Shown here piece by piece: positions 29,786-50,664 of a stretch of 64,000 nucleotides of DNA. Source of the DNA: Hydrurus foetidus. Its lineage: Eukaryota. The stretch is taken from positions 2,480,001 through 2,544,000 of the forward strand of contig UYFQ01000001.1 in NCBI GenBank assembly GCA_900617105.1, given 5' to 3'. The notes under the pieces were generated by a model. That model had not been told where the DNA came from, made no database searches, and saw only the letters and a list, made by a program, of their open reading frames with translations. The position numbers were made by a program, and so were the translations under genes. Each line of letters opens with the position of its first letter. Position 1 is the first letter of the stretch.

Positions 29786-30322
29786 ATGGTCAAAAAATTA
29801 CAAAAGATGAGTGCTGACAAGGCAGGCGCACCACACCTGGCAGGTGCAGTGAAAGAATCAGCACAACAAATCTGGCTGGCTGGCTTGGGCGCGTTTTCAA
29901 AAGCGCAAGAAGGCGGCGGTAAAGTGTTTGAAGCCTTGATGAAAGAAGGCCTGTCTATTCAACGTAAAACGCAAGCAGTTGCTGAAGAAAAACTGTCTGA
30001 AGCCACCAGCAAAATGGCCAACATGGCGGGCGACATTCAGTCCAAAGCAGGCCACCAGTGGGACAAACTTGAAAACATTTTTGAAGACCGCGTAGCCAAA
30101 GCACTGAACAAGCTGGGCGTGCCTTCAGCCAAAGATGTGGATGCCTTGATTGCCCGCATTGACGAGCTCAACAAAAGCGTTCAAAAAATGAGCAAGGCGC
30201 CTGCTGCCAAAGCCCCGGCAAAACCAGCCATAAAAGCCGCAGCAACGGCACCTGCAAAAACCGCCGCCAAGCCAGTCGCCAAAAAAGCGGCCAAGCGCCC
30301 TGCCGCCAGCAAGCCGGCTTGA
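29786..30322 (+). CDS. PhaF-like granule-associated protein (phasin) with Ala/Lys/Pro tail
   Basis: QQIWLAGLGAF, WDKLENIFEDRV..ALNKLGVPS, AKP repeats. Confidence 0.88.
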   Translation: MVKKLQKMSADKAGAPHLAGAVKESAQQIWLAGLGAFSKAQEGGGKVFEALMKEGLSIQRKTQAVAEEKLSEATSKMANMAGDIQSKAGHQWDKLENIFEDRVAKALNKLGVPSAKDVDALIARIDELNKSVQKMSKAPAAKAPAKPAIKAAATAPAKTAAKPVAKKAAKRPAASKPA

Positions 30323-30359
30323 TGAGCTTTGCAATTTTTGCGAATTTAATTTTCAGTTC

Positions 30360-30381
30360 AGGGGGCAAGCGCCCCCTTTTT
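30360..30381 (+). terminator. Intrinsic terminator after the phasin gene
   Basis: AGGGGGC-AAGC-GCCCCCT followed by a T run. Confidence 0.65.
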
Positions 30382-30393
30382 CACGCCTAGACC

Positions 30394-31695
30394 ATGCCAA
30401 GTAACAAGAGTTTGAAAAGTAGCCTCCCATCAAAAAAACCGCGTATTGGCCTGGCACTGGCAGGCGGCGGACCGTTGGGCGCTATTTACGAAATCGGTGC
30501 GTTGTGTGCGCTTGAAGAGTCTTTAGACGGCGTGACGTTCACTGATCTGCATCACTATGTCGGCGTGTCGGCAGGCGGGTTTATTGCAGCAGGCCTGGCC
30601 AACGGCATGACGCCGCGCGAACTGTGCACGGCCTTTATTGAAACCGACGGCGCGCCATCGGAAGTGTTTGACCCGGCCTGGCTGATGGTGCCGGCCTATG
30701 GCGAATTTTTGCGGCGGGCCATCATGCTGCCCAGCCTGGCAGCGTCGGCACTGTGGCGCGCCACCTTTGGCGGCAAAACGCTGCTTAACGCGCTCGAAGC
30801 GCTCGGCCCTGCGCTGCCGACCGGCATTTTTTCAAACGATGAAATTGACGTGCGGCTAACCAAGTTCTTCAGCAAACCTGGCCGTACCAATGACTTTCGC
30901 AAACTCAAAGCCAAGCTGACGCTGGTGGCGACCCAGCTTGACAGTGGTGACGCCGCGCCGTTTGGCCAGCCTGGCTGGGATCACGTGCCGATTTCTAAAG
31001 CCGTGCAGGCCAGCTCCGCGCTGCCGGGCTTGTTTCCGCCGGTAGAAATCGACAACCAGTATTTTGTAGATGGCGCGCTGAAAAAAACCATGCACGCGGG
31101 CGTTGCGCTCGACGAAGGCATTGACCTCATGTTTTGCCTGAACCCGCTGGTGCCCTTTGACGCAACCCGCGTGCCACCGCTAAGCATGAACCAGCGGGTT
31201 ATGCGGCGCGGCTTGCCGCTTGATCGCCAGTTGATTCCGCGCATTGTGGATGGCGGCTTGCCCGCCGTAATGAGCCAGACCTTTCGCGCCATGATTCATT
31301 CACGCCTTGAGCTGGGCATGAAGCATTACGAAAACGCTTATCCGCAAACCGACATCGTGCTGTTTGAACCCGACCACCGCGATGCCGAGCTGTTTTTGGC
31401 CAACACCTTCAGCTACCGCCAGCGCCACCACATGGCCGAACACGCTTACCAAAGCACGCGGCAAATGCTGCGCTCGCGCAAAACGTCGCTGTCGGCCAAA
31501 TTGGCGCGCCACGGGGTGTCGCTTAACTTTGCTGTTCTGGACGACCCCAAGCGGCAGCTGGTCAAGCCCTTGCCGCACGCCACGCAAGTCGGCCGTGCAA
31601 TAGCTGCGCTGGAAGAGTCTATGGAAGACTTGAGCCGCACTATCAATCACTCTATTGGCTACCCGCTCAAGACGCCGCGGCTGCGCTTGGGCTAG
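30394..31695 (+). CDS. Patatin-like phospholipase/lipase
   Basis: GGGPLG oxyanion loop, GVSAG nucleophile, SSALPG, DGA. Confidence 0.9.
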   Translation: MPSNKSLKSSLPSKKPRIGLALAGGGPLGAIYEIGALCALEESLDGVTFTDLHHYVGVSAGGFIAAGLANGMTPRELCTAFIETDGAPSEVFDPAWLMVPAYGEFLRRAIMLPSLAASALWRATFGGKTLLNALEALGPALPTGIFSNDEIDVRLTKFFSKPGRTNDFRKLKAKLTLVATQLDSGDAAPFGQPGWDHVPISKAVQASSALPGLFPPVEIDNQYFVDGALKKTMHAGVALDEGIDLMFCLNPLVPFDATRVPPLSMNQRVMRRGLPLDRQLIPRIVDGGLPAVMSQTFRAMIHSRLELGMKHYENAYPQTDIVLFEPDHRDAELFLANTFSYRQRHHMAEHAYQSTRQMLRSRKTSLSAKLARHGVSLNFAVLDDPKRQLVKPLPHATQVGRAIAALEESMEDLSRTINHSIGYPLKTPRLRLG

Positions 31696-31787
31696 CCGCA
31701 GGGGTGGCGGACATCCCTAGTTACCGGCGCTGCCGCGCTCGGTTAGAGTGTGAACTTCAAGAGGGAGATGACTATGGTGAAAAGACT

Positions 31788-32447
31788 ATGGTGAAAAAAG
31801 CGCCACGCCGCACCGCTGAACGCATACTGGAAGTCACGCTAGAGCTGTTTAATCGCTTTGGCGAACCCAATGTATCGACCACGCTGATCTCTGCTGAGCT
31901 GTCTATCAGCCCCGGCAACCTCTACTACCACTACCCGGCCAAAGACGAGCTGATTAACTCGCTGTTTGACCGCTATGAAAAATCCCTCAGCGAGCTTTTA
32001 AACGCCAGCGACGGCGTGCGCAACGTGGAAGACGCCTGGTTTTTTATGCACACGCTGTTTGAGCTGATCTGGCAATACCGCTTTTTGTACCGCGATTTGA
32101 ACGACTTGCTGAGCAAAAACCGCCGGTTAGAAACGCATTTTCAGTGGGTACTGAAAAACAAAACCCGGTCGGTTAAAGCGCTGCTAGACGGCATGAGCCG
32201 CGCCGGAGCAGTCAAAATCGATTCGCGAGAGGTCGAGGCCACCGCGACCAGCATGGTGGTGGTGCTCACCTACTGGCTAAGCTATGAGTACGTGCGTGAC
32301 CCACGCAACGCGCTGGAGCCCGAAAACGCGCAAAAAGCCCTGCTGCGCGGCGCGCACCATGTGCTGAATTTGCTGGTGCCCTACCTTGAGCAAAGCCAGC
32401 GTGCGCACTTGCAAACGCTGGTCGGTGCATACAGTCACAATGATTAA
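31788..32447 (+). CDS. TetR-family regulator (PhaD-like)
   Basis: LFNRFGEPNVST..ISPGNLYYH, WQYRFLYRDL. Confidence 0.88.
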   Translation: MVKKAPRRTAERILEVTLELFNRFGEPNVSTTLISAELSISPGNLYYHYPAKDELINSLFDRYEKSLSELLNASDGVRNVEDAWFFMHTLFELIWQYRFLYRDLNDLLSKNRRLETHFQWVLKNKTRSVKALLDGMSRAGAVKIDSREVEATATSMVVVLTYWLSYEYVRDPRNALEPENAQKALLRGAHHVLNLLVPYLEQSQRAHLQTLVGAYSHND

Positions 32448-32540
32448 GTAGTATCGAGCTTAGAACTATTAATTAATATTCGCGAACTTTGTTGATTAAC
32501 ATTGCAATTTCAAAAACCAAAATAACGACCTGGAGACATC

Positions 32541-33314
32541 ATGGCTAAATGGACCGCTTTCCCCCACGCAGGCGACTACGCCTTCGACGCTGCCAGCCTT
32601 AAAAAGAGCTGGGCGCGCTTGCACCAAGGCGACTGCGAGCCGCTGCCCAAAGATGCGGCTGTGCTTAATGCCTGGGTGCTGTTTCACAACGGCGAATTTC
32701 AAAAAGCGCATGACGCAGGCGTCAAAGCCGGCGGCGACGGCATCACGGTGGCCAACAAATCAGCTGGCATTTACGCCAACTACCTAGAGACCAAAGAAAA
32801 AACCAAGCTCGACATGTTCATGGAAGTCGCCGCACGGGCTGAGGCGCAGCAAAAAGCCGACCCCAAAAACGCCAACGCGTTTTACTGGCAGGCGTACGCG
32901 CTGGGCCGTTACGGCCAGGGCATCAGCGTGGCCAAAGCGCTGGCGCAGGGCTTGGGCACCAAGGTCAAGCAGGCGCTGGAACAAGCCATTAAATTGCAGC
33001 CCAAACACGCTGACGCACACATTGCGCTGGCAGCTTTCCATGCTGAAGTGATCGACAAAGTCGGCTCGCTGATTGGCGGCATGACCTACGGCGCTAAAAA
33101 AGACGTCGGTTTGTCGCTGTTCAAAAAAGCGCTTGAGCTCAACCCCACTTCAGCCATTGCCATGATTGAGCACGCCAACGGCATGGTCATGTTGGAGGGC
33201 GACAAAAAAATGAAAGACGCCACCAAGCTGTACGAGCAAGCCGCCGTCAGCAAGCCGCTAGACGCCATGGAGCGGCTTGATGTGGAAATGGCCAAGGCTG
33301 AGCTGGAAGACTAA
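32541..33314 (+). CDS. Hypothetical TPR-like helical protein
   Basis: Good SD (GGAG), helical repeats (AYALGRYGQ, ALELNP), W..LH.GD.EP N-terminus. Confidence 0.75.
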   Translation: MAKWTAFPHAGDYAFDAASLKKSWARLHQGDCEPLPKDAAVLNAWVLFHNGEFQKAHDAGVKAGGDGITVANKSAGIYANYLETKEKTKLDMFMEVAARAEAQQKADPKNANAFYWQAYALGRYGQGISVAKALAQGLGTKVKQALEQAIKLQPKHADAHIALAAFHAEVIDKVGSLIGGMTYGAKKDVGLSLFKKALELNPTSAIAMIEHANGMVMLEGDKKMKDATKLYEQAAVSKPLDAMERLDVEMAKAELED

Positions 33315-38812: not shown

Positions 38813-40423
38813 ATGGTTACTCGCACGCAAGCTGCCGCAGGGCGCATTAAAACTGGCAAAACAGTCGCCCAAGATATGGCGCTAGATGCCGCCGCCAGTG
38901 TTCAAAAAAACGTCAAACGGGCAGTGGCGGGCACGCTCGGTTTGATGGGCGAGCGCATGACCAAGGTCGACACCGCCTGGCTGCGCATGGACTGCGACGC
39001 CAATTTAATGATGATCATTGGCGTGTGGCAACTGGCCCCCGGCATCAAGCACGCGGCGGTGTGCGAGCGCTTGGAAGGCACGCTGCTTAAGTACAACCGA
39101 TTTAAGCAGCGCGTGATAGAAGACGCGGCCGGTGCTACCTGGGTGACTGACCGCAAGTTCGACATTGCCAACCACGTGCTGGTTGAAAAGCTGCCTAAAC
39201 CCGCTAACGGCCACGACCAACAAGCCGCGCTACAAGACCGCGTGGCCGCGCTGGCCACGCAAAAGCTCGACCCCAAGCGCCCACTTTGGCAAATGCATTT
39301 AATCGAGGACTATGTGGGCCCCGACGGCGTGAAAGGCAGCGCGCTGATTGTGCGCATTCACCACTGCATTGCTGACGGCATTGCGCTGATATCGGTCACC
39401 ATGTCGCTGGTAGATGGCGGCACTGCACCGCCCGAGCGACGCAAAAAAGACGAAGCCGCACAGGGCGCTGAAGACTGGCTAACTGACATGTTTAGGGACA
39501 CGCTGCTAAAACCATTCACCGACATTACCGTGAAAGCACTGCGCGCAGTCGGTGAAGGCGCGGCGCGCTCGCTGGGCATGCTCGAACACTTGGGCGAACC
39601 CAAAAAGGGCGCGCAAAAAGGCGTGGGCGCGTCTATGGATATGGCCAAAGTCATGCTGCAGGTCATCAAAGATTCTGCCGCGCTGGCGCTGATGCCAAAC
39701 GACTCGCCCACCCGGCTCAAAGGCAAACCCGGCGGCAGCAAAAAAGTGGCCTGGTGCCAGCCGATTCCACTTGAAGAAGTCAAAGCCGTGGGCAAGGCGC
39801 TGAACTGCTCGATCAACGACGTGTTGCTGAGCTGCGTGGCTGGGGCGCTGGGCGAGTATTTAAAGTCGTTTGGCGACGACGTGAGCGGCCAGGAAATTCG
39901 TGCGATGGTGCCGGTTAATTTACGCCCACCTGCCCACGAGGGCGGCAAGGCCCACCAGCTAGGCAATCGGTTTGGGCTGGTGCCGCTGGTGCTGCCGATT
40001 GGCGTTGAAAACCCAATCGAGCGGGTGTACGAAGTCAGAAGGCGCATGGCCGCACTCAAGGGCAGCTACCAGCCGCTGCTGGCCTTCAGTTTGCTGGCAG
40101 TGGCCGGGCTGCTCATTAAACCTGCGCAAGACATGATGCTGAACGTGTTCGCCAAAAAAACCACGGCCGTGATGACCAACGTGCCCGGCCCGCGAGACAA
40201 GCTCAAGTTTTGCGGCAGTACGCTGGAGCAAAGCATGTTTTGGGTGCCGCAGTCTGGCGACGTGGGCTTGGGCGTGTCGATTTTGAGCTACGGCGGCGGC
40301 GTGCAGTTTGGCGTGATTACCGACAGCTTGCTGTGCCCCGAGCCGCAAAAAATAATTGACGAATTTGTACCTGAATTCGCCAAGCTGTCGCTGGTGACGC
40401 TGATGTTGCCCTGGGGTGAGTAA
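38813..40423 (+). CDS. Wax ester synthase / diacylglycerol acyltransferase
   Basis: HHCIADG catalytic motif, RPLW, INDV, PVNLR, TNVPGP. Confidence 0.93.
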   Translation: MVTRTQAAAGRIKTGKTVAQDMALDAAASVQKNVKRAVAGTLGLMGERMTKVDTAWLRMDCDANLMMIIGVWQLAPGIKHAAVCERLEGTLLKYNRFKQRVIEDAAGATWVTDRKFDIANHVLVEKLPKPANGHDQQAALQDRVAALATQKLDPKRPLWQMHLIEDYVGPDGVKGSALIVRIHHCIADGIALISVTMSLVDGGTAPPERRKKDEAAQGAEDWLTDMFRDTLLKPFTDITVKALRAVGEGAARSLGMLEHLGEPKKGAQKGVGASMDMAKVMLQVIKDSAALALMPNDSPTRLKGKPGGSKKVAWCQPIPLEEVKAVGKALNCSINDVLLSCVAGALGEYLKSFGDDVSGQEIRAMVPVNLRPPAHEGGKAHQLGNRFGLVPLVLPIGVENPIERVYEVRRRMAALKGSYQPLLAFSLLAVAGLLIKPAQDMMLNVFAKKTTAVMTNVPGPRDKLKFCGSTLEQSMFWVPQSGDVGLGVSILSYGGGVQFGVITDSLLCPEPQKIIDEFVPEFAKLSLVTLMLPWGE

Positions 40424-40499
40424 AAGCACTAGTAATTCGGCTGGCGTTTATGCCGGCAAAAAATCTGACGGAATTTTTTAACGCTCGCAACAAAATCTT

Positions 40500-40516
40500 T
40501 GCAAAACTGCTTTGCC
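40500..40516. promoter_or_regulatory. Putative LysR-type operator (copy before the PYP-like gene)
   Basis: TGCAAAACTGCTTTGCC, similar to 42548-42564 and 44504-44520. Confidence 0.4.
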
Positions 40517-40705
40517 TGAACAATGACGTGAATTCGTTCACTGTTTCAGTTTGAGCATTTAAGCTAGGCAAGACGTTTAGTTTTTTATCCTTCAACAGGC
40601 TGGGCGGTGGGCTGCAGTGCATCGCTTGTCGTTTGACGATAGCGTTCAAAACCAAAGTTCCTCCGCGTTTGCCTGCAAGATTCGCTAACCCAAGTTGGTC
40701 ACCTC

Positions 40706-41245
40706 ATGCAGTACGCTACTCCGCCGCCTCAGCCCCACCAAGCTTTTGACCAGCGCACGCTGACTTCACTCGATAGTCAGCCGTACGGTTGCATCAAACT
40801 CGACAAAACCGGGCGAGTGCTGGAATTTAATATTGCCGCGTCAGCCGTGCTGGGTGTTCGCGCCAAGGACGCAATTGGCAAGCACTTTTTTACCGAAGTT
40901 GCCCGGTGTGCCGACAACCCCGAGTTTTACGGCCGATTTAAAACCGCCATGGCGGGCACTGGCGTGTTGAACAAGGTTATTGACCACCGGTTTGTTATGT
41001 CTGAAGCGGCGCAAGCGATGGGGGGTGTTTTATCGATTGACGTGCGGGTGCATATGTTTTCCAGCACTGACACGGCTGGCCTGCCGGTGGTGTGGGTGGT
41101 GACCCGCAAAAAAGCAGACGCTCTGACAACTGCTTTCAGCAACAGCCGGCCGCCAGACGCCAAACCGCCTGCGGCACCCGTTGCACAGCCAGCCCAGCGC
41201 CGACCGATTCAGAGCATTTCCTCTTCGTTTGACGTGCTGATGTGA
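40706..41245 (+). CDS. Photoactive yellow protein (PYP)-like PAS protein, divergent
   Basis: LD..PYG.I.LD..G, IGKHFFTEVARC, PEFYGRFK, VRVHM, WV match PYP signature segments; Pro-rich C-terminal tail. Confidence 0.85.
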   Translation: MQYATPPPQPHQAFDQRTLTSLDSQPYGCIKLDKTGRVLEFNIAASAVLGVRAKDAIGKHFFTEVARCADNPEFYGRFKTAMAGTGVLNKVIDHRFVMSEAAQAMGGVLSIDVRVHMFSSTDTAGLPVVWVVTRKKADALTTAFSNSRPPDAKPPAAPVAQPAQRRPIQSISSSFDVLM

Positions 41246-41358
41246 TTGGGTCGCGCTTCGGCTTTTTTTGTCATTTTTAGGCACTAAATCAGCACCTGGC
41301 GCGCTGAATACGGGCGTAAGCAGCTATTAATTCTATAGTACTGACTTGGGCAAACTAT

Positions 41359-42324
41359 TCACACCACTCGACTTTCAGCTAACTTCAAGCGACTTCCCAA
41401 TTGGTCTTTTAGGTAATCAACGAACAATTGCACCTTGAGTGGCTTGCCCTTGCGCAAAGCCACCACGGTGTACACCGCCTTGGTTTCCTCCAGCTCTTGC
41501 ATAACTCTAACCAATTGACCGCTCGCTAAGTGGTCAGCGCAGTACTGGTACTTCAACTTGCCGATGTGTTCGCCACTCAGCACGGCCAGCAGCGCTACCT
41601 CTGGCTCGTTGGTGGGCAGCTTGGCTAAGGCGTAAACCATTTCGCCTACGGGGTTGGTCAGTAGAATTTGCTCATTTAGCTCGTAGTCATAACTGACAGC
41701 AGTAATAGGCAGTTGGGCCAGGGCTTGTATGGACGCGGGTGTGCCGTGCTTTTCTAAAAAGCCCGGCGTCGCCACAAACCCCATGCGACATTCACCCAAC
41801 TTGGACACCACCGCTCGCTCTTCCAGCGGCATTCCAATGCACACGCCCACATCAAAATCATTGTTAGCCATTGAAAAAGGTTTCGAGTCCAGTTTCAGCG
41901 ATATCTTTAAATGGGGGTGTAGCACGCCGAAAGAAATCACGAGGTCACCCACAAAACGGCGGCCAATGGCAGGCGGGCACAACACTCGCAACTGGCCTCG
42001 CACTTCCACACTGTAGCGGCTCATGGTTTGGCGCCCGGCTTCAAGCGCGGTCATGGCCTTGAGCACGAAGTGCAGGTAAGACTGCCCAGCTTCGGTCAAA
42101 CGCAAGCTGCGCGTGTCACGCTCAATCAGCCGCACACCGAGGCCTTCTTCAAGGTCATCCAACTTGCGGCTGACGGTGCTGGTGTTGACACCCAATGACC
42201 TCGCAGCCAGGGAGATGCTGCTTTTTTCAACAACAACCGAAAAGTACAGCGCGTGAATGGCGTCAAGTGGCGAGAAGACTTGTACGTCGCTGCCAGCGGG
42301 CTTGGTTTTGCGGGAAGACTGCAT
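41359..42324 (-). CDS. LysR-family regulator, copy 1 (CrgA/DmlR-like)
   Basis: AARSLGVNTSTVSR..LE..LGVRLIERDTRSLRLTEAG. Confidence 0.92.
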   Translation of the reverse strand: MQSSRKTKPAGSDVQVFSPLDAIHALYFSVVVEKSSISLAARSLGVNTSTVSRKLDDLEEGLGVRLIERDTRSLRLTEAGQSYLHFVLKAMTALEAGRQTMSRYSVEVRGQLRVLCPPAIGRRFVGDLVISFGVLHPHLKISLKLDSKPFSMANNDFDVGVCIGMPLEERAVVSKLGECRMGFVATPGFLEKHGTPASIQALAQLPITAVSYDYELNEQILLTNPVGEMVYALAKLPTNEPEVALLAVLSGEHIGKLKYQYCADHLASGQLVRVMQELEETKAVYTVVALRKGKPLKVQLFVDYLKDQLGSRLKLAESRVV

Positions 42325-42547
42325 GGGCGATTAGGTCAGCACAGCGTGCGGTTAAGAGCAGATTTATTCAAGATGAATGTGGCTATATCGTAGTAGGCTG
42401 ATATAAAAAGTTAGTTTCTAAGTAAGCTTTAAATTGAGGAGCGGACAAGGGTTTGAAGTTTATTGAATTGCTTACCGTGCCGTTACCGACAGCAAATTGC
42501 CCGCTGGTTGTCCGTGACGATTACATACACAAAATTTGAGGTGTTTT

Positions 42548-42564
42548 TGCAAAACAGTCGTGCA
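42548..42564. promoter_or_regulatory. Putative LysR operator
   Basis: TGCA-N9-TGCA (TGCAAAACAGTCGTGCA), conserved between the duplicated intergenic regions. Confidence 0.55.
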
Positions 42565-42697
42565 GAATGCTTATTTGAAGACAAAAGTGACAATTAGTAA
42601 CTTCAATCAATGGCTACATTTGACACTCGATCACTTTTGCGCCGTGGCTGGTATTTTTGCCATGCGCTGTGCAGGTCAAATCCGAGGCATTCTGTTA

Positions 42698-43195
42698 ATG
42701 ATTTTTGCAAAAACTAACCTGGGTCGCATTGCGGCCTTTGACCCCCAATCTGCCCTGCCTGCGCCGCAAAAAGCGCAGACTGACGCTCTAGCTGTTTCAG
42801 CCAATGACGACGTCGAACAACCTGCTCGCTTTCTCCAAATGTCATTGGTGTCAAATAATCGCGAAGGCACGATGACTGCATCGCTGGCGACATTGCTGCA
42901 GCCCGACAGCGCGCCAGAATTTGCTGCGTCTGGCTCTTCACACTCAGCCGAGTACCAAGACCGCCTGCAATCTGCCAAAGACAGCTTGATCGGTTTTGTA
43001 CTCGCGAACTTGCGGCAAGAGGCCAACGTGGTGCTGCAAGCGGTCAGTCAAATTACGCACAACGACCAGCTAAAAGCCACCATCATTGCGGTGCTGAGCA
43101 TGGCCAATCACGCCAGCCAGACCGACCCGAGTCAAACCCGCGCGTTAAATCAAGCCTTGCTGCAGTTGGCTGACGAAGAGTGGGAGCAAAAATAA
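42698..43195 (+). CDS. Hypothetical protein, internally deleted paralogue of 44664-45269
   Basis: MIFAKTNLGR..AFDPQS, TM.ASLA.LL.P, YQDR...AKDSL, QLKATI shared with the paralogue. Confidence 0.7.
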   Translation: MIFAKTNLGRIAAFDPQSALPAPQKAQTDALAVSANDDVEQPARFLQMSLVSNNREGTMTASLATLLQPDSAPEFAASGSSHSAEYQDRLQSAKDSLIGFVLANLRQEANVVLQAVSQITHNDQLKATIIAVLSMANHASQTDPSQTRALNQALLQLADEEWEQK

Positions 43196-43297
43196 GGGCT
43201 TAGGGCTTTTTTCAGGCAACGTTATTGCTGGATTAGCCCTTTAGCCTAGCAAATTCAGGTGCAAGCAGCTATTAATAGCATAGCTAATTGAAGGTCG

Positions 43298-44272
43298 TTA
43301 ACCCGCCCCAACCGCCAGATCTTCAAGCGCCTTCAAGTCGCTGCCCAAGTAGTTTTTTAAAAAATCAACAAACAGCTGCACCTTCAGCGGTTTGCCTTTT
43401 CGCAGCGCCACCACGGTGTAGATGGCTTTGGTGATTTCCAGCTCAGGCATGACCTTGACTAGCTGCCCGCTGGCCAGCTGGCTGGCGCAGTACCAGTACT
43501 TCATGCGGCCAATGTACTCACCGCTTAGCACGGCGCGCAGCGCTACCTCTGTGTCGTTGGTGGGCAGCTTGGTAACCGCATAGGCGATTTCACCTTTAGC
43601 ATTGGCCAGCACCACTTGTTCATGCAGATGGTAGTCGTAGCCGACTTCGGTGATCGGCAGTTTGGCCAGCGCGTAAATACTGTCGGGGGTGCCGTACTTT
43701 TTCAAAAAATCGGGGGTGGCCACAAAGCCCAGGCGTAACTCACCCAGCTTGGACACCACTGCGCGGTCTTCTACCGGCATACCCAGGCAGATGGCTACGT
43801 CAAAGTCGGTGTCGGCCAGCGCAAAGGGTTTGGAGTCCAGCTTTAACGACACCTGCAAATGCGGGTGCAGCACGCCAAAAGCAACCACCAGGTCGGCCAC
43901 AAACTGCCGTCCAATGGCGGGCGGGCACAACACCCGCAACTGGCCGCGCACTTCCACGCTGTAGCGGCTCATGGTTTGGCGCCCAGACTCTAAAGCGCCG
44001 ATTGCCTTGAGCACGTAGTGCAAATACGACTCGCCGGCCTCAGTCAGGCGCAGATTGCGGGTGTTGCGCTCAAGCAAGCGCACGCCGAGGTTGGTTTCCA
44101 GCTCATCAAGGTGACGACTAACGGTGCTGGCGTTCACGCCCAGTGATTGCGCCGCCCGGGTAATGCTGTTTTTCTCGGCAACCACTGAAAAATGCAAAGC
44201 GCGCGTTGCATCCAGCGGCGAAAAAGATTGCAGTTCGCTACCGCTGGGCTTGGGTTTACGTAGGGGGAGCAT
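43298..44272 (-). CDS. LysR-family regulator, copy 2
   Basis: Collinear paralogue of copy 1 (identical MSRYSVEVRGQLRVLCPPAIGR and YTVVALRKGKPLKVQLFVD). Confidence 0.92.
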   Translation of the reverse strand: MLPLRKPKPSGSELQSFSPLDATRALHFSVVAEKNSITRAAQSLGVNASTVSRHLDELETNLGVRLLERNTRNLRLTEAGESYLHYVLKAIGALESGRQTMSRYSVEVRGQLRVLCPPAIGRQFVADLVVAFGVLHPHLQVSLKLDSKPFALADTDFDVAICLGMPVEDRAVVSKLGELRLGFVATPDFLKKYGTPDSIYALAKLPITEVGYDYHLHEQVVLANAKGEIAYAVTKLPTNDTEVALRAVLSGEYIGRMKYWYCASQLASGQLVKVMPELEITKAIYTVVALRKGKPLKVQLFVDFLKNYLGSDLKALEDLAVGAG

Positions 44273-44503
44273 GAGGCAATAAAAATAACAAAACACAAAA
44301 CTGGCGACCGTTCCAGAAGCACTGCACTGCCGCTTGAACGTCGTTCTTCTAAACGCAAAACTCTGACCGTCCGACTCTGTTCGCGCTGCACAAAATAACT
44401 GCACACCAAAAGAGGAAAATCGCATAAAACCAGTGATCTTGGAGACACACTAAATAGCAAAGTTCAATTAGACCAACAAGACACTGGCATACGCGGCATC
44501 ATC

Positions 44504-44520
44504 TGCAAAACAGTGTTGCA
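44504..44520. promoter_or_regulatory. Putative LysR operator
   Basis: TGCAAAACAGTGTTGCA. Confidence 0.55.
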
Positions 44521-44663
44521 AGCTTTCAGATTGCCAGCTGAAGTAAGCACCAGTAACATCAAATGAATGATGCAAATGCAGCACTGGTAACGATGGCAAG
44601 CTGACTGTGATTCATACTTTTTAGCCCATGCTTACAGGCGCGCAGTACCAAAGAACTTACTCA

Positions 44664-45269
44664 ATGATTTTTGCTAAGACCAACCTCGGCCGCATGCTGG
44701 CCTTTGACCCACAATCCAACTTGTCACGCCCCGAAAAAGCCCTGTTGCGGCTGATTGACGGTAAAACCCGCTTGAGCACATTAACCAGCACGATGGACCC
44801 TGCGGATTGCTCCATTCAGCTGATCGAAGCGCTGCTTGATAAAGAGCTGATTCAGCTGGCCAAAGCAGAGCCTGAATTGGTTGGCGCGTCGGTAAAAGAA
44901 GCTAGCTCAGAGCCCAGCAGGCCGCGCCATCTGGCGCTGGTGTTGCCGCACTATGACCAAACCATGCCGGCATCATTGGCCGCGCTGCTCGAGCCCGAGT
45001 CAATGGCTGATTTCAGTGCGACTGCACCGCATTCGTTTGATTACCAAGACCGCATGGATACCGCCAAAGACAGCCTGGCTACGTTCGTGCTAACTTACTT
45101 GCCAGACGACGCCGCGCTGATGCTGCAGGAAGTCAATCAAATTTCCAACATTGAGCAGCTCAAAGCCACCATTGTTACGGTGCTGAACATGGCCAAGCAG
45201 GCCAGCGAAGTTGATGCGGACCAAACCCAGGCATTGAGTCAAACGTTGTATCAACTGTGTGAAGAGTAG
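44664..45269 (+). CDS. Hypothetical protein with KT..G..L....LL.LIDG N-terminal domain (possible winged helix)
   Basis: Clean ORF; paralogue upstream; fold assignment is inference. Confidence 0.75.
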   Translation: MIFAKTNLGRMLAFDPQSNLSRPEKALLRLIDGKTRLSTLTSTMDPADCSIQLIEALLDKELIQLAKAEPELVGASVKEASSEPSRPRHLALVLPHYDQTMPASLAALLEPESMADFSATAPHSFDYQDRMDTAKDSLATFVLTYLPDDAALMLQEVNQISNIEQLKATIVTVLNMAKQASEVDADQTQALSQTLYQLCEE

Positions 45270-45419
45270 CGGTCAGAAATGTTGAGCTGATTTTTACGAT
45301 TTTTACGATTTTTTAATCGTTTTTAAGGCTCTTTAAGCCGTGCAGCTCAATTGTTATGGTCGCAAGCAGCTCTTTATTTTGTAGCGCCTGCTTACGCGCT
45401 GCAGGTGTCCATAGGCCGC

Positions 45420-46187
45420 TCAGTGCGCCCAGCGCTGCTGCGCAATCTCCAGCAGCCCGTCAAAAATCAGGCTTTCTACCAGCTCCACCTCGATCGACAT
45501 GCTGGGCGCCATCTTCCAGCCTGCGCCGCCGGTCATGATGCAAATCGGCGCCTGGCCGCAGCGCTGAGCCAGGTTGTCTGCCATGCGCTGCACGGCCCCG
45601 GCAATGGCGAAGGTACCGCCGCTGGTCAACGCGTCGCTAGTATTGGTGGGGAAGTCTTGCACCTCGCCAGTGGGCACGTGCAGGCCTGCGGTGCCAGACT
45701 CCAGTGCGCGCAGCATGATGCCGTGGCCCGGCAAAATAATGCCGCCTAAAAACCGGCCGGTCTCGTCAATGGCTTCCACCGTAACGGCTGTGCCCACCAT
45801 GACCACAATGCAAGGCTTGGCCGCACCACTTGCAAGTACGCGGTGGCGTGCACCAATCATGGCTACCCAGCGGTCAGCACCCAGGCGCGCCGGAAAGTCG
45901 TAGCCATTGACCACGCCCGCCTCAGCGGCGCCAGGCACTACCCAGCGGGGCACGGCTTCCCACAAATCAAGCTGCTCGACCACGCGGCGCCGAATGGCGT
46001 CACCGGCCACGATGCAGCCCAAAATATGCTGCGGCGCGGCCAGCTCGCGCCACTCGCCCTCGGCCAGCTTGTCGATGTTTTCTAAAAACACCGCGCCTTG
46101 CGCCAGCAGCACCGCGCCGCGGCTGGGCGATGCGTACTGCGCCCATTTCAGGCGGGTGTTGCCAACATCAAGCGCTAGGAAAGTCAT
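45420..46187 (-). CDS. coaX: Type III pantothenate kinase
   Basis: [32 protein letters not shown]. Confidence 0.93.
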
Positions 46188-46241: not shown

Positions 46242-46910
46242 TCAGATGAGTCCGAACCAGCATGCGCGCTGTATGGCGGCTAATTTGTTGTCAACCTTGA
46301 GCCGACTCATAGCGTTCGCCAGGTGAAAGTTGACCGTTCGCTCGCTGCAAAAAAGATGCTCGCCACTTTCCCGGGCGGTCAGGCCTTTAAACGCCAGTTG
46401 CAAGCACTCCAGCTCACGCGGGCTCAATGGGTTACGCGCCTCAGCCAGTGCACGCTTGAGCAGCGGCCAAATGTTAAGCGCCGACCAGGCCAGTAGCGCA
46501 GCTTCACTGCGGTCAACCCACTGGCGCAGACTGAACAAATAGCATTCAAACGCCCGGCCCACGGCCAAAGGAAACGCAATGCGCACCACACTTTGGTAGC
46601 CATGCGCAAGCCACAACCTGCGCCAACGGCTCATGTTTTCAAATGCGGTTTTTGAAATGTCTTGCCACGCCACCAAGGGTGCGTCTGAGTCGCGCCAGGG
46701 TGCGCCAAAGTCGCGGCTCTCAGCCAGGGCCTCCGCCGCATCCAGCAAGCGTGGCGGGTGCAGCGCCAGCACCAGCCGGTCCTCTTGCCCGCCAAAGGGG
46801 TCAGGGCCGAGAACCATCAGGGCCTCTACCGAAAATTCACGCAAACCGCAAAGCCAGTCGTTGACCACAGCGTCAGCATTCACACTGTCAAAGTTAGCAG
46901 GTAGTTGCAT
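46242..46910 (-). CDS. LuxR-family regulator with a divergent autoinducer-binding-like domain (LuxR solo)
   Basis: QS-type HTH LSPRELECL...G.T..E...SERTVNFHLANAM.RL; N-terminus keeps P..W and HG but lacks the W/Y/DP AHL-binding residues. Confidence 0.85.
   Translation of the reverse strand: MQLPANFDSVNADAVVNDWLCGLREFSVEALMVLGPDPFGGQEDRLVLALHPPRLLDAAEALAESRDFGAPWRDSDAPLVAWQDISKTAFENMSRWRRLWLAHGYQSVVRIAFPLAVGRAFECYLFSLRQWVDRSEAALLAWSALNIWPLLKRALAEARNPLSPRELECLQLAFKGLTARESGEHLFCSERTVNFHLANAMSRLKVDNKLAAIQRACWFGLI
46883..46902 (+). promoter_or_regulatory. lux-box-like site upstream of the sensor kinase, inside the luxR 5' end
   Basis: CACTGTCAAAGTTAGCAGGT = NN-CTG-N10-CAG-GT. Confidence 0.55.
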
Positions 46911-46945
46911 CGGTTTTGATTAAAAAGAACAAGGACAATGGGCAA

Positions 46946-48316
46946 ATGGGAAATCAAAAAACAACGAGCCGCTTACTTTGGATCCGCAGGATCGAGGCAT
47001 CTAAATTGCTTACAGCAACTTCAAAATTTCGGTTTGGCGTGAAACCCAAGCTCCAATGGTTGCGGGAAGAAGTTGTCAATGCGCCGTTTGAACCTATTTT
47101 GCATCCTTCGTCACGGAGACTGTGGTGGCTGGGCTTGTCCATTTTTGCGGGCAATGCCGTGTTCGCATGGATTTGGTCGGTCTGGCTGCCGCAGCCTTAT
47201 GAAAATTTGGCATTACGGTTCATCGCGAGCGCTTTGGGCTTGGCTTTGATGGTGCCCAAAATCAATCATGATCCCGACAGCCTTTTGGCCCAGCGCGTTT
47301 TCAGCATCGTGTTCTGGCTGGAGCTGCCGGTATTTTTCACCTGGATGTATCTTTGCAATAGCGCCAGTCCGGTGTGGCTGGCTTCGACAGCCTCGATGCT
47401 GTTGATTTACTACCTGGTAACCGACTGGCGGTTGGCCTCGCTTGGCACGATCACTGGATTCCTTGTGTCGTTGATCGCGTTCGCGCTAGCGGGACCCACG
47501 GCAGCGCCTTTTCAAGACGGGCAAATCGCTGTCCACGCAGTCGTGTTCGCGTTTGTCTGGTTCAGCGCACTGGTTCTTAATCTTTCTTCAGCAAATTTGC
47601 GACGCACCCATCTGTCGCACACGCTTGCAACCATTGGCATCATGGCCCATGAATTACGCACACCCTTGTCGACCGCAGCGCTTCTTGGGGATGCCATGCA
47701 GATGGAAGTTGCGCGCTGGCCAAGTAGTCCGCTCGCGCCGCAAATAGAAAAACTTGCCGTTCGACTGCACCGATTGGTGCGTAACATGAACCATCAGATT
47801 GACACGCAAATTACCAACGCAAAACTTCGGGAACTGCCGCGCCCCACGGAACTGGTTTCAGCTACTCGTTTGGTTGCAGATGCAGTCGCCAATTATCCAT
47901 ACGCTTGCAGCCGTCAAGAGCGCTGCGTGCGGGTTGTTAACCACGATGAGTTCAATTTCAGGTCGTGCTCGGTGCAATTCTCGCAGGTGCTGGACAACTT
48001 GATTAAAAACGCGTTGCACTCGCTGATGGCTGCTGATTCCAGTTACGCCCCCGGGGCATTGCGTATAGAAATACGCGCACATAAAAACGACAAAAACTAC
48101 GGGACGATAATTGTTGAAGATGATGGTATGGGCATCAAGCCTGAAGTACTGCTGCAAATTTTCAAACCCTTCTTTTCAAGTAATAAAGACACCGGGCATG
48201 GGCTGGGTTTGGCGTTTTGCCAACAGGTGGTGCGCAGTGCGGGTGGCAGCATTAGTGTGAAATCCAAGTTTGCGGTCGGGGCAACCTTCGTGATTGTGCT
48301 GCCAATCGCAAAATAA
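46946..48316 (+). CDS. cqsS: CqsS/LqsS-type alpha-hydroxyketone sensor histidine kinase (no receiver domain)
   Basis: About six TM helices with QPYENLALR, LPVFFTWM, WLAS; GIMAHELRTPL, DNLIKNA, DDGMGI, GHGLGLAFC; start uncertain. Confidence 0.85.
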   Translation: MGNQKTTSRLLWIRRIEASKLLTATSKFRFGVKPKLQWLREEVVNAPFEPILHPSSRRLWWLGLSIFAGNAVFAWIWSVWLPQPYENLALRFIASALGLALMVPKINHDPDSLLAQRVFSIVFWLELPVFFTWMYLCNSASPVWLASTASMLLIYYLVTDWRLASLGTITGFLVSLIAFALAGPTAAPFQDGQIAVHAVVFAFVWFSALVLNLSSANLRRTHLSHTLATIGIMAHELRTPLSTAALLGDAMQMEVARWPSSPLAPQIEKLAVRLHRLVRNMNHQIDTQITNAKLRELPRPTELVSATRLVADAVANYPYACSRQERCVRVVNHDEFNFRSCSVQFSQVLDNLIKNALHSLMAADSSYAPGALRIEIRAHKNDKNYGTIIVEDDGMGIKPEVLLQIFKPFFSSNKDTGHGLGLAFCQQVVRSAGGSISVKSKFAVGATFVIVLPIAK

Positions 48317-48359
48317 CCTTCGAGCACAACGCGAACAACCAACATCAACAGCAAAGCCC

Positions 48360-49346
48360 ATGACTTTCCCGCTCTACCGCCGTCCCGCCGCTGTCGTTTT
48401 TCTGGATGACGATCTTGACTATCTTGAGATGTTGGCCAACGTCATGCCGATGGAGTGGTTTGTCCGCCTGATGATTCGGCCAATTGCCTGCATTGAAATG
48501 CTCGTAGCTGAAATTGCATCGGCGGAGCTAGACATGTGGAAACAGCAAGAAATCATCAACCACTGGCGAGACGGCAGCGCGTTGATTCCGCAGATCCTTG
48601 CTTACTGGCGAGACGACGGGACATTGCGGTTCTCGTTGGCTCGGGTGTTAGTGGTGGACTACTCGATGCCGGCCATGAGTGGCCTGAGGGTTCTCAGTGA
48701 GCTGACGCAGTGGCCAGGATTACGTATCTTGTTAACAGGCCGGGCCGACGAGCAGCTTGCTGTGTCTGCATTTAACAGAGGCTCCATCCAGCAGTTCATA
48801 CCCAAGCAATCACCGGAAATCCGGCTGCGCCTGACTGCTGCCATCCAGCACCTGCTGCACAAACCAGACGCACGACATGAGCAAACCTGGCGCTCCACCT
48901 TGTCACGCGAGCAAAGCGCGCTGCTGAGTGACCCGACCATCGCGGGGTCGCTTGCGAAACTCGCCGCCGAGCAAAATTGGGTAGAGCATGTCGTTATCGG
49001 CGCCCCCTTTGGCGTGCTTGCCCTTGACACAGCCGCCAAGGTGGCTTGGCTTCAGCTGGAGCCTACTGACCGGCTAATTGAACTGGCGGAAATTGCAGAG
49101 TCTCAAGGCTGGAGTGCTGAGAACGTGCAGGATGTTCGCGCCGGTAAAAAACTCATTGATGCTGAGCTCCAGCTCGCCATTGGCAGCGCACAAAAACCAA
49201 GGCTGAAGGAAGCCTTCGTGATGGGCTCGGAAACAGCGCAGATATACGCAGCGCTGTTTGAGGTCAATCAAACGTTTTGCCCAAAACCCTCTGACAGCCA
49301 CCAAGACTTCATCACCAGCCAAAGTCACCGGCACATACAAGGTTAA
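48360..49346 (+). CDS. LqsR/JqsR-like response regulator with no recognisable DNA-binding domain
   Basis: Split receiver: VVFLDDD, long insert, VVDYSMPAMSG, LLTG, FIPK; between sensor and synthase. Confidence 0.82.
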   Translation: MTFPLYRRPAAVVFLDDDLDYLEMLANVMPMEWFVRLMIRPIACIEMLVAEIASAELDMWKQQEIINHWRDGSALIPQILAYWRDDGTLRFSLARVLVVDYSMPAMSGLRVLSELTQWPGLRILLTGRADEQLAVSAFNRGSIQQFIPKQSPEIRLRLTAAIQHLLHKPDARHEQTWRSTLSREQSALLSDPTIAGSLAKLAAEQNWVEHVVIGAPFGVLALDTAAKVAWLQLEPTDRLIELAEIAESQGWSAENVQDVRAGKKLIDAELQLAIGSAQKPRLKEAFVMGSETAQIYAALFEVNQTFCPKPSDSHQDFITSQSHRHIQG

Positions 49347-50596
49347 TTCAAACCTTGCCCCGCCCGGGCTCGTCGCGCGATGGGCCAGTCCCACGGTTTG
49401 ACGATTTGCGCAACTTCGCGGGCTGCTGCTTCTACGTGGTCTAGTTCCGAGTCCATCAAACCTGCATTCAGTGTCATGCGCATCATGGCCCGCTTGCTGC
49501 TGGTGGCCGGTGCGCAAAACATAGCCGAGAATACGTTACGCTCCTCAAGCCTGTCGCGCAGCACCATCGTGTCTGGTTCCGTACCAGATTCCAGCGCAAT
49601 AATTTGCTGGCTGCCCTGGTGAATTGGGTAGCCCAAATCTTCAAGGCTTTGGCGCAGTCTCAGGGTGTGAGAGTGCAGTCGCGTGCGTGCCATATCGCTA
49701 TTTTTAATGACTTCAAGAGTTGCCGTCAGCCCAGCAATTTCATGAGGCAACAAACTGGAGCTAAAGATATTAGGAAAACTCGTACAAAAAATGTAATGCC
49801 GAAGATGGGCTGGCGCACTAAAAAATCCGGCTCGCCCTGCGAATGCCTTTGCCAAACTAGCGGTGATGAAATGCACCCGATCGGAAACACCAAGCTCAGC
49901 ACACAGGCCTGACCCTTGAGGCCCGTGCGTTCCCAAAGAGTGTGACTCATCCACCAGAATCATGCACTCGCCTTGCTCAGCTACGTTCACCATTTCAACC
50001 AGCGGACACAACGCGCCTGTGGTGCTGTAGACCGAATCAACCACTACCAAACCTGGCCCGTGCTTGGCAATCATGCGAGCCAAATGGGTCGGATCGTTAT
50101 GTCGAAATGGGATAGAGGGCGCACGCGCTGCGTGCGCACCCTCCCAGAGTGAGGCATGCGCAAGGGTGTCAAGATAAACAGGGGTGCTCGCATCGGCGAT
50201 AGCTTGCAGTAAGCCGACGTTTGCCGTGTATCCGGATTGGCAGATAAATCCGTCGTCTTTGCTGATCCACGCTGCTAAAGCCATCTCTAGCGCGCGCGTG
50301 GGATGTTGATTGAGATGAAACACGCCGGACTGCACAACAAATTCATTTGCTTTGAGCAACGCATCCACTTGCGCCTGCACGATGCTCGGATGGCCCGTGA
50401 TGCCGAGATAGTCATTGCCATCCAGTCGAATTGCGTTGGGCCCCGGCACAACACCGTGCAGGACGAATTTACCGCCCCATTGCTTGTCCCAGCGTGGTGT
50501 GAAATCCCGCGCGATTCTGCTGGAAAGGCGTTTACCCAGTGGCGGATTCGCAAACGGCTTGGTGTCGAGAGATGATTTTTGGTCCAGTGCTTGCAT
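49343..50596 (-). CDS. cqsA: CAI-1/LAI-1-type autoinducer synthase (PLP-dependent AOS family)
   Basis: NDYL, QSGVF, QSGYTANVGLLQ, AHASLWEG, VDSVYSTTG, DESHSLG, SLAKAFAGRAG, FCAPAT; next to cqsS-like kinase. Confidence 0.92.
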   Translation of the reverse strand: MQALDQKSSLDTKPFANPPLGKRLSSRIARDFTPRWDKQWGGKFVLHGVVPGPNAIRLDGNDYLGITGHPSIVQAQVDALLKANEFVVQSGVFHLNQHPTRALEMALAAWISKDDGFICQSGYTANVGLLQAIADASTPVYLDTLAHASLWEGAHAARAPSIPFRHNDPTHLARMIAKHGPGLVVVDSVYSTTGALCPLVEMVNVAEQGECMILVDESHSLGTHGPQGSGLCAELGVSDRVHFITASLAKAFAGRAGFFSAPAHLRHYIFCTSFPNIFSSSLLPHEIAGLTATLEVIKNSDMARTRLHSHTLRLRQSLEDLGYPIHQGSQQIIALESGTEPDTMVLRDRLEERNVFSAMFCAPATSSKRAMMRMTLNAGLMDSELDHVEAAAREVAQIVKPWDWPIARRARAGQGLN

Positions 50597-50664
50597 GATG
50601 AGATTTCTCAGTTGGTTGATCGAATCCCCATTCAATGCGCACACACACCTCGACACGTGCCACC

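Follow-up and report, generated by a model that had tools for sequence, protein, structure and literature searches.

A degenerate paralogue of photoactive yellow protein with apolar residues at the phenolate site, a conserved C-terminal motif and a signature of purifying selection

Introduction

PAS domains have their structural prototype in photoactive yellow protein (PYP), whose downstream partners are still missing. Two surveys of the family took Cys69 as the sign of a functional photoreceptor (Xing 2022, PMC9664959; Dohmen 2025, PMC12826048). According to the accessible text of the latter, 97.1% of 984 PYPs have Glu46 and another 2.6% have Gln46 (Glu or Gln in 99.7%), position 42 is Tyr or Phe in 99.7%, Leu52 is the family consensus, and tyrosine ammonia-lyase (TAL) is rare in pyp operons (PMC12826048). 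The accessible text of the former reports that, among 789 sequences, Tyr42 and Glu46 were never found to be both changed with Cys69 kept, that a Y42F/E46Q mutant of the S. ruber protein holds pCA protonated, and that the sole Polaromonas entry is a Y/E/C protein of clade C (PMC9664959). Apo-PYP takes several thioesters, as far as the accessible text of PMC6273459 goes.

Derivatives that have departed from this scheme are also known. In the methylobacterial Ppr-PYP, Cys69 was lost, Y42C and S50C were acquired, and the domain is fused to a bacteriophytochrome kinase. The engineered proteins FAST and nanoFAST (PDB 7av6, 8ao0), in which Y42 and E46 are kept for a phenolic fluorogen, hold a ligand in the PYP pocket without a thioester. 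The PYP_like group of Xing 2022, for example the Y/E/W single-domain proteins of Magnetospirillum, has lost Cys69 and kept Y42 and E46. In the accessible parts of the literature, Ppr-PYP and the PYP_like proteins are natural PYP derivatives without chromophore binding that are proposed to be neofunctionalised, a likeness to the proteins described here.

We analysed a 64,000-nucleotide stretch of contig UYFQ01000001.1 (assembly GCA_900617105.1; hereafter, the window) that encodes a member of a PYP clade at odds with the published rule by which PYPs with Cys69 retain Tyr42 or Glu46. A search of the openly accessible literature returned no account of this clade, which is apparently undescribed so far. 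Among 30 of the 31 PYP_like rows of Xing 2022, there is no stand-alone protein with an apolar residue at 42, Ala46 and Cys69, and none from Comamonadaceae.

A PYP fold without the phenolate-binding residues

An earlier note on this DNA had described a PYP homologue that retains the thioester cysteine, carries the changes Y42F, E46A, T50L, R52V and P68R, and has an extra Pro-rich tail that closes with SISSSFDVLM; sequence and structure comparisons bear out this description. The features of the gene are as follows.

40706..41245, plus strand: degenerate PYP paralogue gene, 179 aa (ORF, phmmer, TIGR02373, AF2, Foldseek, VIA-align)
40763..41113, plus strand: PYP-type PAS domain, residues 20-136, equivalent to H. 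halophila PYP 21-125 (phmmer, VIA-align, profile alignment)
40907..40909, plus strand: codon of Cys68 (PYP Cys69); the syntenic orthologues L001 and L002 have the Ser codon AGC here
41207..41242, plus strand: C-terminal motif IQSISSSFDVLM, pattern [IV]Q[SDN]ISSxFDxS[IV], kept across the clade
41248..41274, plus strand: terminator-like hairpin with T run, a weak candidate (1 found versus 1.9 expected by chance)

The protein is composed of a Pro-rich N-terminus that occupies the place of the PYP cap helices, the PAS domain, a Pro/Ala-rich linker, and the conserved C-terminal motif. All 33 phmmer matches to PDB sequences were PYP, FAST or Ppr, with residues 21-97 aligned to H. halophila PYP 22-97 (E 5e-16 to 6e-14) and no gaps up to residue 84. 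This alignment establishes the equivalences F41=Y42, A45=E46, L49=T50, V51=R52, R67=P68 and C68=C69. The TIGR02373 profile scored 68.5 bits (E 5.5e-19), below its cut-off of 143. An AF2 model built from 14 sequences had a mean pLDDT of 65, with most of the PAS core at 60-90 and residues 1-19 and 139-179 mostly below 50. PYP was the top Foldseek match of this model (E 4e-10), and VIA-align superimposed model residues 20-136 on chain residues 21-125 of apo-PYP 9o8v with a Z-score of 14.8 and an rmsd of 1.8 Å over 105 residues. Thus, phmmer, the TIGR02373 profile and the model-based comparisons (AF2, Foldseek, VIA-align) all give a PYP-type PAS fold. In the ESM Atlas, the protein matched generic PAS clusters only.

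Compared to the PYP family (H. halophila PYP, PDB 1kou, 2phy and 9o8v), the window protein shares the PAS fold, Cys69 and residues G29, N43, F62, F63, A67, F75, F79, G86, F96 and W119, whereas it lacks Y42, E46, T50 and Y94, has its cap helices replaced and bears an extra tail. His94 corresponds to PYP Y94 by profile alignment, and T133 to PYP V122 by VIA-align; we take V122 and Y94 to be pocket-lining positions in the PYP structure. Unlike Ppr-PYP, it is a stand-alone protein of 179 aa with F41 and L49 and a retained cysteine. A scan for sigma-70 promoters returned no site, and two oligo-dT RNA runs, which are no test of its expression, contained 0 reads for the gene.

Residue conservation in the degenerate PYP clade

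Word-indexed searches, which covered lengths of about 96-422 aa, returned 13, then 15 clusters of related proteins, and these were met in MAGs and metagenomes only. A scan of metagenome contigs found three loci, none of them from this clade. The comparison covered 16 representatives, namely the window protein together with P0002-P0013, P0128, P0129 and the protein of L002. P0001 differs from the window protein at a single residue and was left out. The 16 form one clade with support of 100/99. Position 42 is always apolar (eight Leu, four Phe, two Met, two Ile), position 46 is Ala in 16/16 in place of Glu or Gln, and position 50 is Leu in 15 and Val in one. The window protein, with F41 and A45, therefore keeps neither Tyr42 nor Glu46. 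Position 68 is Pro in 12, Arg in three and Leu in one, R68 being local and not clade-wide, and the VAPC loop is retained in most of the clade.

The earlier note had asked whether the F/A/L/V combination co-occurs in homologues. The changes at 42, 46 and 50 do so clade-wide, whereas Val52 is also common to 109 of 114 intact tailed PYPs (PypB, see below); by this sequence comparison, R52V is not a loss.

Cys69 itself is less constant than these positions. The window protein has it (C68), and it is found in 10 of the 16 representatives, with Ser in the other six; when cluster members are included (55 rows), the counts are 41 Cys, 13 Ser and one gap. The Ser/Cys pattern is explained by only two changes on the tree, two of the Ser members, P0128 and L002, are almost identical, and the starred subclade that contains the window protein has Cys69 in 9/9. 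Of 117 domain columns, 37 do not vary, and the Cys69 column is surpassed in conservation by 82. All 16 representatives have His at PYP Y94 and Thr at PYP V122, and a cysteine was newly gained at position 29 in 15/16; position 60 is Cys in 12 and His in four. The pocket-lining residues F62, V66, A67, F96 and I31 are retained across the clade, and K31, R114, H116, W130 and R134 on the outer face are invariant. The tail motif occurs in 16/16 representatives after a variable linker and is terminal in 15, with the P0011 cluster including forms with a changed tail end. This conservation suggests that the motif is likely a protein-binding peptide.

Purifying selection

We estimated dN/dS over the PAS domain by the Nei-Gojobori method. 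Values were 0.12 and 0.10 for the window gene versus L001 and L002, respectively, 0.07 for L001 versus L002, and 0.06 versus G001 (35 codons only). In the window/L001/L002 pairs dS was near saturation (1.8-2.2; pN/pS 0.18-0.26), compared to 0.6-0.8 in neighbouring genes. Among metagenome variants from four runs, 30 of 35 changed codons were synonymous and five non-synonymous, and 34 of the 40 best-supported differences (out of 77, with four runs and several contigs pooled) fell at the third position. Between like genome pairs, the gene has a pN of 0.13-0.19 versus 0.02-0.04 for PypB. No stop was present within the domain in any of the 16 representatives. The degenerate PYP is under purifying selection and is not decaying. 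Strain-specific decay, which the earlier note had named as a refutation, does not account for a gene with dN/dS of 0.06-0.12 whose Ala46, Leu/Val50 and apolar position 42 extend through all 16 representatives. The Ser orthologues L001 and L002 occupy the same locus as the window gene.

A late insert into a genus-wide gene frame

The gene is present in about 3/204 genomes of the genus (3/201 in one count) and in 1/401 genomes of the family, namely G001. It lies at the same position in the window, in L001 and L002, two MAGs labelled Polaromonas, and in the nearest genome G001, whose contig begins inside the gene. The downstream order in these four is LysR, hypothetical protein, coaX-like gene (a tentative name), luxR, kinase and response regulator, and a CqsA-type synthase ends the row in the window and L002. 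The upstream WS/DGAT gene is found in 101/201 genus genomes and the synthase in 96/201 (including the unpublished G432). Among the best 30 WS/DGAT loci, 24 continue directly into the coaX-like gene without a PYP-like gene, two have the LysR cassette without it, two are carriers and two gave no match. The WS/DGAT-coaX-like-CqsA frame is a genus-wide backbone, and the PYP-like gene is a late insert. The acyl-CoA neighbours are uninformative about a ligand because of this late insertion, and the acyl-CoA/wax-ester/autoinducer context invoked in the earlier note is backbone synteny (101 and 96 of 201 genomes versus 3); we rejected the link on these grounds. Membership in an alpha-hydroxyketone (CqsA/CqsS-type) cluster was likewise rejected, as the synthase (96/201 genomes versus 3) shows no co-occurrence beyond the backbone. 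In G489 and G001 the synthase was not matched at E 1e-100, and both contigs stop before its place.

A palindrome shared with the LysR-hypothetical cassette

The region around the gene contains a LysR-hypothetical cassette and a short palindrome.

40501..40515, no strand: palindrome GCAAAACTGCTTTGC, candidate operator, exactly 190 bp before the ATG, likewise in L001 and L002
41359..42324, minus strand: LysR regulator copy 1, a candidate regulator of the PYP-like gene, towards which it is transcribed (convergent)
42549..42563, no strand: palindrome copy 2, two mismatches, between LysR 1 and hypothetical 1
42698..43195, plus strand: hypothetical protein copy 1, no Pfam match, internal deletion relative to copy 2
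43298..44269, minus strand: LysR regulator copy 2, 74% identical to copy 1
44505..44519, no strand: palindrome copy 3, one mismatch, between LysR 2 and hypothetical 2
44664..45269, plus strand: hypothetical protein copy 2, unnamed family

The palindrome was defined on the three PYP-like loci (3/3 at -190), and the seven LysR-hypothetical intergenic regions were not used for its definition. Six of these seven regions contain it with 1-2 mismatches, a quality matched in 0-5 of 300 shuffles; it was not found in G405. No copy was detected in 28 regions behind WS/DGAT of non-carrier loci (best 4-6 mismatches). The canonical LysR box is T-N11-A, from which the palindrome departs; the simplest reading is nonetheless a candidate operator of the adjacent LysR. 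The intergenic DNA of the pypAB-pCL genes (see below) yielded no copy, and one site with 1-2 mismatches marks the beginning of the GTPase gene in both G001 and G580. A global palindrome regulon was considered (9-13 one-mismatch matches per genome versus 0-3 in the reversed control) and dropped, as most of 35 fetched sites lay, by eye, inside unrelated ORFs.

The interval 41359-45269 is a recent tandem duplication of the cassette, with a palindrome accompanying each copy; the cassette is single in L001, L002 and G001. The hypothetical family (44664-45269 and paralogues L092-L108) has two domains, no Pfam match and unnamed ESM Atlas clusters, and the deletion in copy 1 falls in the N-terminal domain. 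It is present in 12/201 genus genomes, seven of which also have PypB, with up to three paralogues per genome, and a paralogue of copy 2 is encoded in the pypAB-pCL/LOV/GTPase cluster of G001 (29% identity, E 7e-12).

The intact PypA-PypB-pCL operon and the origin of the clade

Separate from the PYP-like locus, all three carrier genomes have an operon encoding two intact PYPs and a coumarate-CoA ligase (pCL)-like protein. The tailed PYP, here named PypB (G001:C447, G489:C30 and G558:C119), lies between the second one, PypA, and the pCL-like gene, which reached 207-242 bits with TIGR02372 in 3/3 carriers, under the cut-off of 335. PypB is found in 9/204 genus genomes, and the three carriers are all among those nine; because the carriers are kin, this co-occurrence counts as about one event, not three. 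By inference from these relatives, the genome of the window would also contain a pypAB operon. The statement in the earlier note that the window holds no TAL or pCL gene stands (window ORFs of at least 150 aa, judged on their first 70 residues, with 12 proteins Pfam-scanned), and it carries no weight as an argument, given the pCL-like gene elsewhere in 3/3 carrier genomes. The only aromatic ammonia-lyase found in G001 and G489 is histidase, with no TAL, while a search of G558 (84% complete) yielded no such enzyme.

In the best 114 of 372 PypB matches, a sample biased towards good ones, Y42, E46, T50 and C69 are present in 114/114. PypB proteins (at least 114 clusters) have a Pro/Ala tail with an internal amphipathic stretch and end in RHEDILKF; no description of a tailed PypB was found in the accessible parts of Xing 2022 and Dohmen 2025. 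The degenerate clade resembles PypB in its arrangement of PAS domain, Pro/Ala linker and fixed C-terminal motif, and in K32, A57, V52 and a longer Gly-bearing beta-H/beta-I hairpin. They differ in that PypB keeps Y42/E46/T50/C69, adjoins pCL and has another C-terminal motif. In our trees the degenerate clade is sister to PypB (93/84 and 94/93, branches unstarred), with a stem of about 1.7-2.0 changes per site that calls for a long-branch warning, and an AU test did not reject PypA as the sister (p 0.18). Six conserved columns link the clade to PypB alone, three to PypA and four to other PYPs. Tailed PypB is thus the likely parent of the degenerate clade, although the matter is not settled.

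The surroundings of the operon offer candidate partners. In G001 and G580, it adjoins two PAS-LOV proteins (whose NCRFLQG we take to be the LOV motif), a small GTPase and two roadblock-like genes; this set recurs in G489, where one LOV protein was detected. The cluster (G001:C447, L021 1428-10661; G580:C122, L122; G489:C30, L121; G558:C119/C409) also includes two unnamed proteins, and its GTPase is MglA/Roc-like. In L033 (G420:C143), pypA and pypB appear split or frameshifted, with the pCL-like gene following. We regard the pypAB-pCL/LOV/GTPase cluster as a candidate for blue-light signalling that may include output partners of PYP. Reaction-centre genes are present in G489, G558, G580 and G427, and a search of G001 (81% complete) yielded none. 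A gene of G001, L151 (G001:C405 779-1711), is presumably BchC-like, which suggests that G001 is also a bacteriochlorophyll phototroph.

Possible function of the degenerate PYP

By established PYP chemistry, a protein without Tyr42, Glu46 and Thr50 does not stabilise the phenolate and has no proton donor. The function of the p-coumaroyl chromophore was likely lost with these residues, and blue light is likely no longer sensed. A changed ligand is plausible because the apolar positions 42, 46 and 50 are clade-wide and under purifying selection. The earlier note had proposed a different acyl group on the cysteine; the change of ligand is the part that can be upheld, whereas a conserved covalent acyl-cysteine is at odds with Ser in 6/16. 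Since the Ser69 orthologues are equally constrained and have the same new residues, the conserved job of the clade most likely needs no thioester, although Cys69 could still be important in the subclade of the window protein, where it occurs in 9/9. The retained pocket walls, together with invariant A46, H94 and T122, suggest that the cavity was kept for a non-covalent, mostly apolar ligand.

Our preferred reading, held at about even odds, is that the protein is a PYP paralogue no longer active as a photoreceptor, with a re-lined pocket for non-covalent binding, output through its tail peptide and, likely, control by the neighbouring LysR. Under this interpretation, a copy of tailed PypB would have been inserted beside an older LysR-hypothetical cassette and then have come under the control of its LysR; a small ligand would bind in the pocket, the signal would probably be passed on via the C-terminal peptide, and a non-light cue might be fed to partners of the PYP pathway of the cell. 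A bolder and distinctly less probable version is a natural PYP-derived chemoreceptor with a non-covalent, non-phenolic ligand, its own LysR and a tail peptide feeding into an undescribed PypA/PypB-LOV-small-GTPase light-signalling system of phototrophic Polaromonas-like bacteria. If true, it would mark the first switch from light to chemical sensing among PYPs and give access to their missing output partners, for which the operon beside the LOV and GTPase/roadblock module provides concrete candidates.

Several alternatives were weighed against the non-photoactive receptor. The protein might bind no ligand at all and imitate PypB constitutively or act as its decoy, using the exposed sheet and tail to compete for PypA, PypB or their output partner, or to pair with one of them. 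Its constant company with pypAB-pCL in the three carriers, the low-confidence Pro-rich stretch in place of the cap helices, the invariant outer face and the L/F/M/I variation at position 42, as is typical of packing residues, fit this proposal, which we nonetheless regard as unlikely: invariant polar H94 and T122 and a small A46 would be unexpected for simple core filling, the tail motif is not that of PypB, and the gene sits at another place in the genome, under a promoter of its own. Rather less credible is that the Cys members are still loaded by pCL with a protonated p-coumaroyl group and serve as sensors of near-UV light or as chromophore sinks, an ability that the Ser members would have lost. 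A pCL-like gene in every carrier, Cys in 9/9 of the window subclade, the mostly retained VAPC loop, the S. ruber Y42F/E46Q mutant that still binds protonated pCA (accessible text of PMC9664959) and the several thioesters taken by apo-PYP (accessible text of PMC6273459) speak for such loading. It conflicts with Ser orthologues at the same locus, on which purifying selection is at least as strong and whose invariant pocket residues do not differ, with the absence of the photocycle proton donor, and with Leu50, which would be expected to crowd the phenol site.

Two further proposals seem improbable. That Cys68 bears another acyl thioester (cinnamoyl or fatty acyl) tied to the acyl-CoA and autoinducer neighbours, as first suggested, draws on the apolar positions 42, 46 and 50, Cys in 10/16, and an invariant His94 near the Cys loop that could aid acyl transfer; it has to contend with Ser in the remaining six, with neighbours that belong to the genus-wide backbone, and with the lack of a visible cinnamate source (histidase only in G001 and G489, no such enzyme in G558). 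A thiol, redox or metal sensor using the gained Cys and His residues, by analogy with what was proposed for methylobacterial Ppr-PYP, holds no more promise. Cys29 (15/16), position 60 (12 Cys, four His) and H94 would be its residues, whereas position 60 is His in the window protein, Trp replaces Cys29 in one cluster, and we assume that positions 29, 60 and 94 do not meet in the PYP fold. A functionless decaying duplicate, finally, is largely refuted: the rarity of the gene (3/204), its higher pN than PypB and the tail-end changes in the P0011 cluster would agree with decay, but the low dN/dS, the 37 invariant columns, the intact domains, the conserved tail and an upstream element at fixed spacing would not.

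Compared to the PYP family at large, then, the degenerate clade is partly Ser at 69, and it may exemplify a state in which Cys69 lingers after becoming dispensable. Intact PypB and the Cys-bearing and Ser-bearing degenerate proteins offer a graded series for studying photoreceptor repurposing.

Other features of the window

The interval 38813-45420 between WS/DGAT and the coaX-like gene is an insertion hot spot, and in some genomes WS/DGAT and the synthase are about 15 kb apart. Upstream, the genes at 29786-33314, which we take to be phasin-like, patatin-like, TetR and TPR-like, precede an acyl-CoA-binding protein and WS/DGAT, and this segment resembles an ordinary storage-lipid cluster. Downstream, 46242-50656 encodes luxR, a histidine kinase, a response regulator and an alpha-hydroxyketone synthase (NF005526, 553 bits). 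Such CqsA/LqsA-type clusters are present in about half of the genus, and their LuxR protein hardly varies (dN/dS 0.01 for the window gene versus L001).
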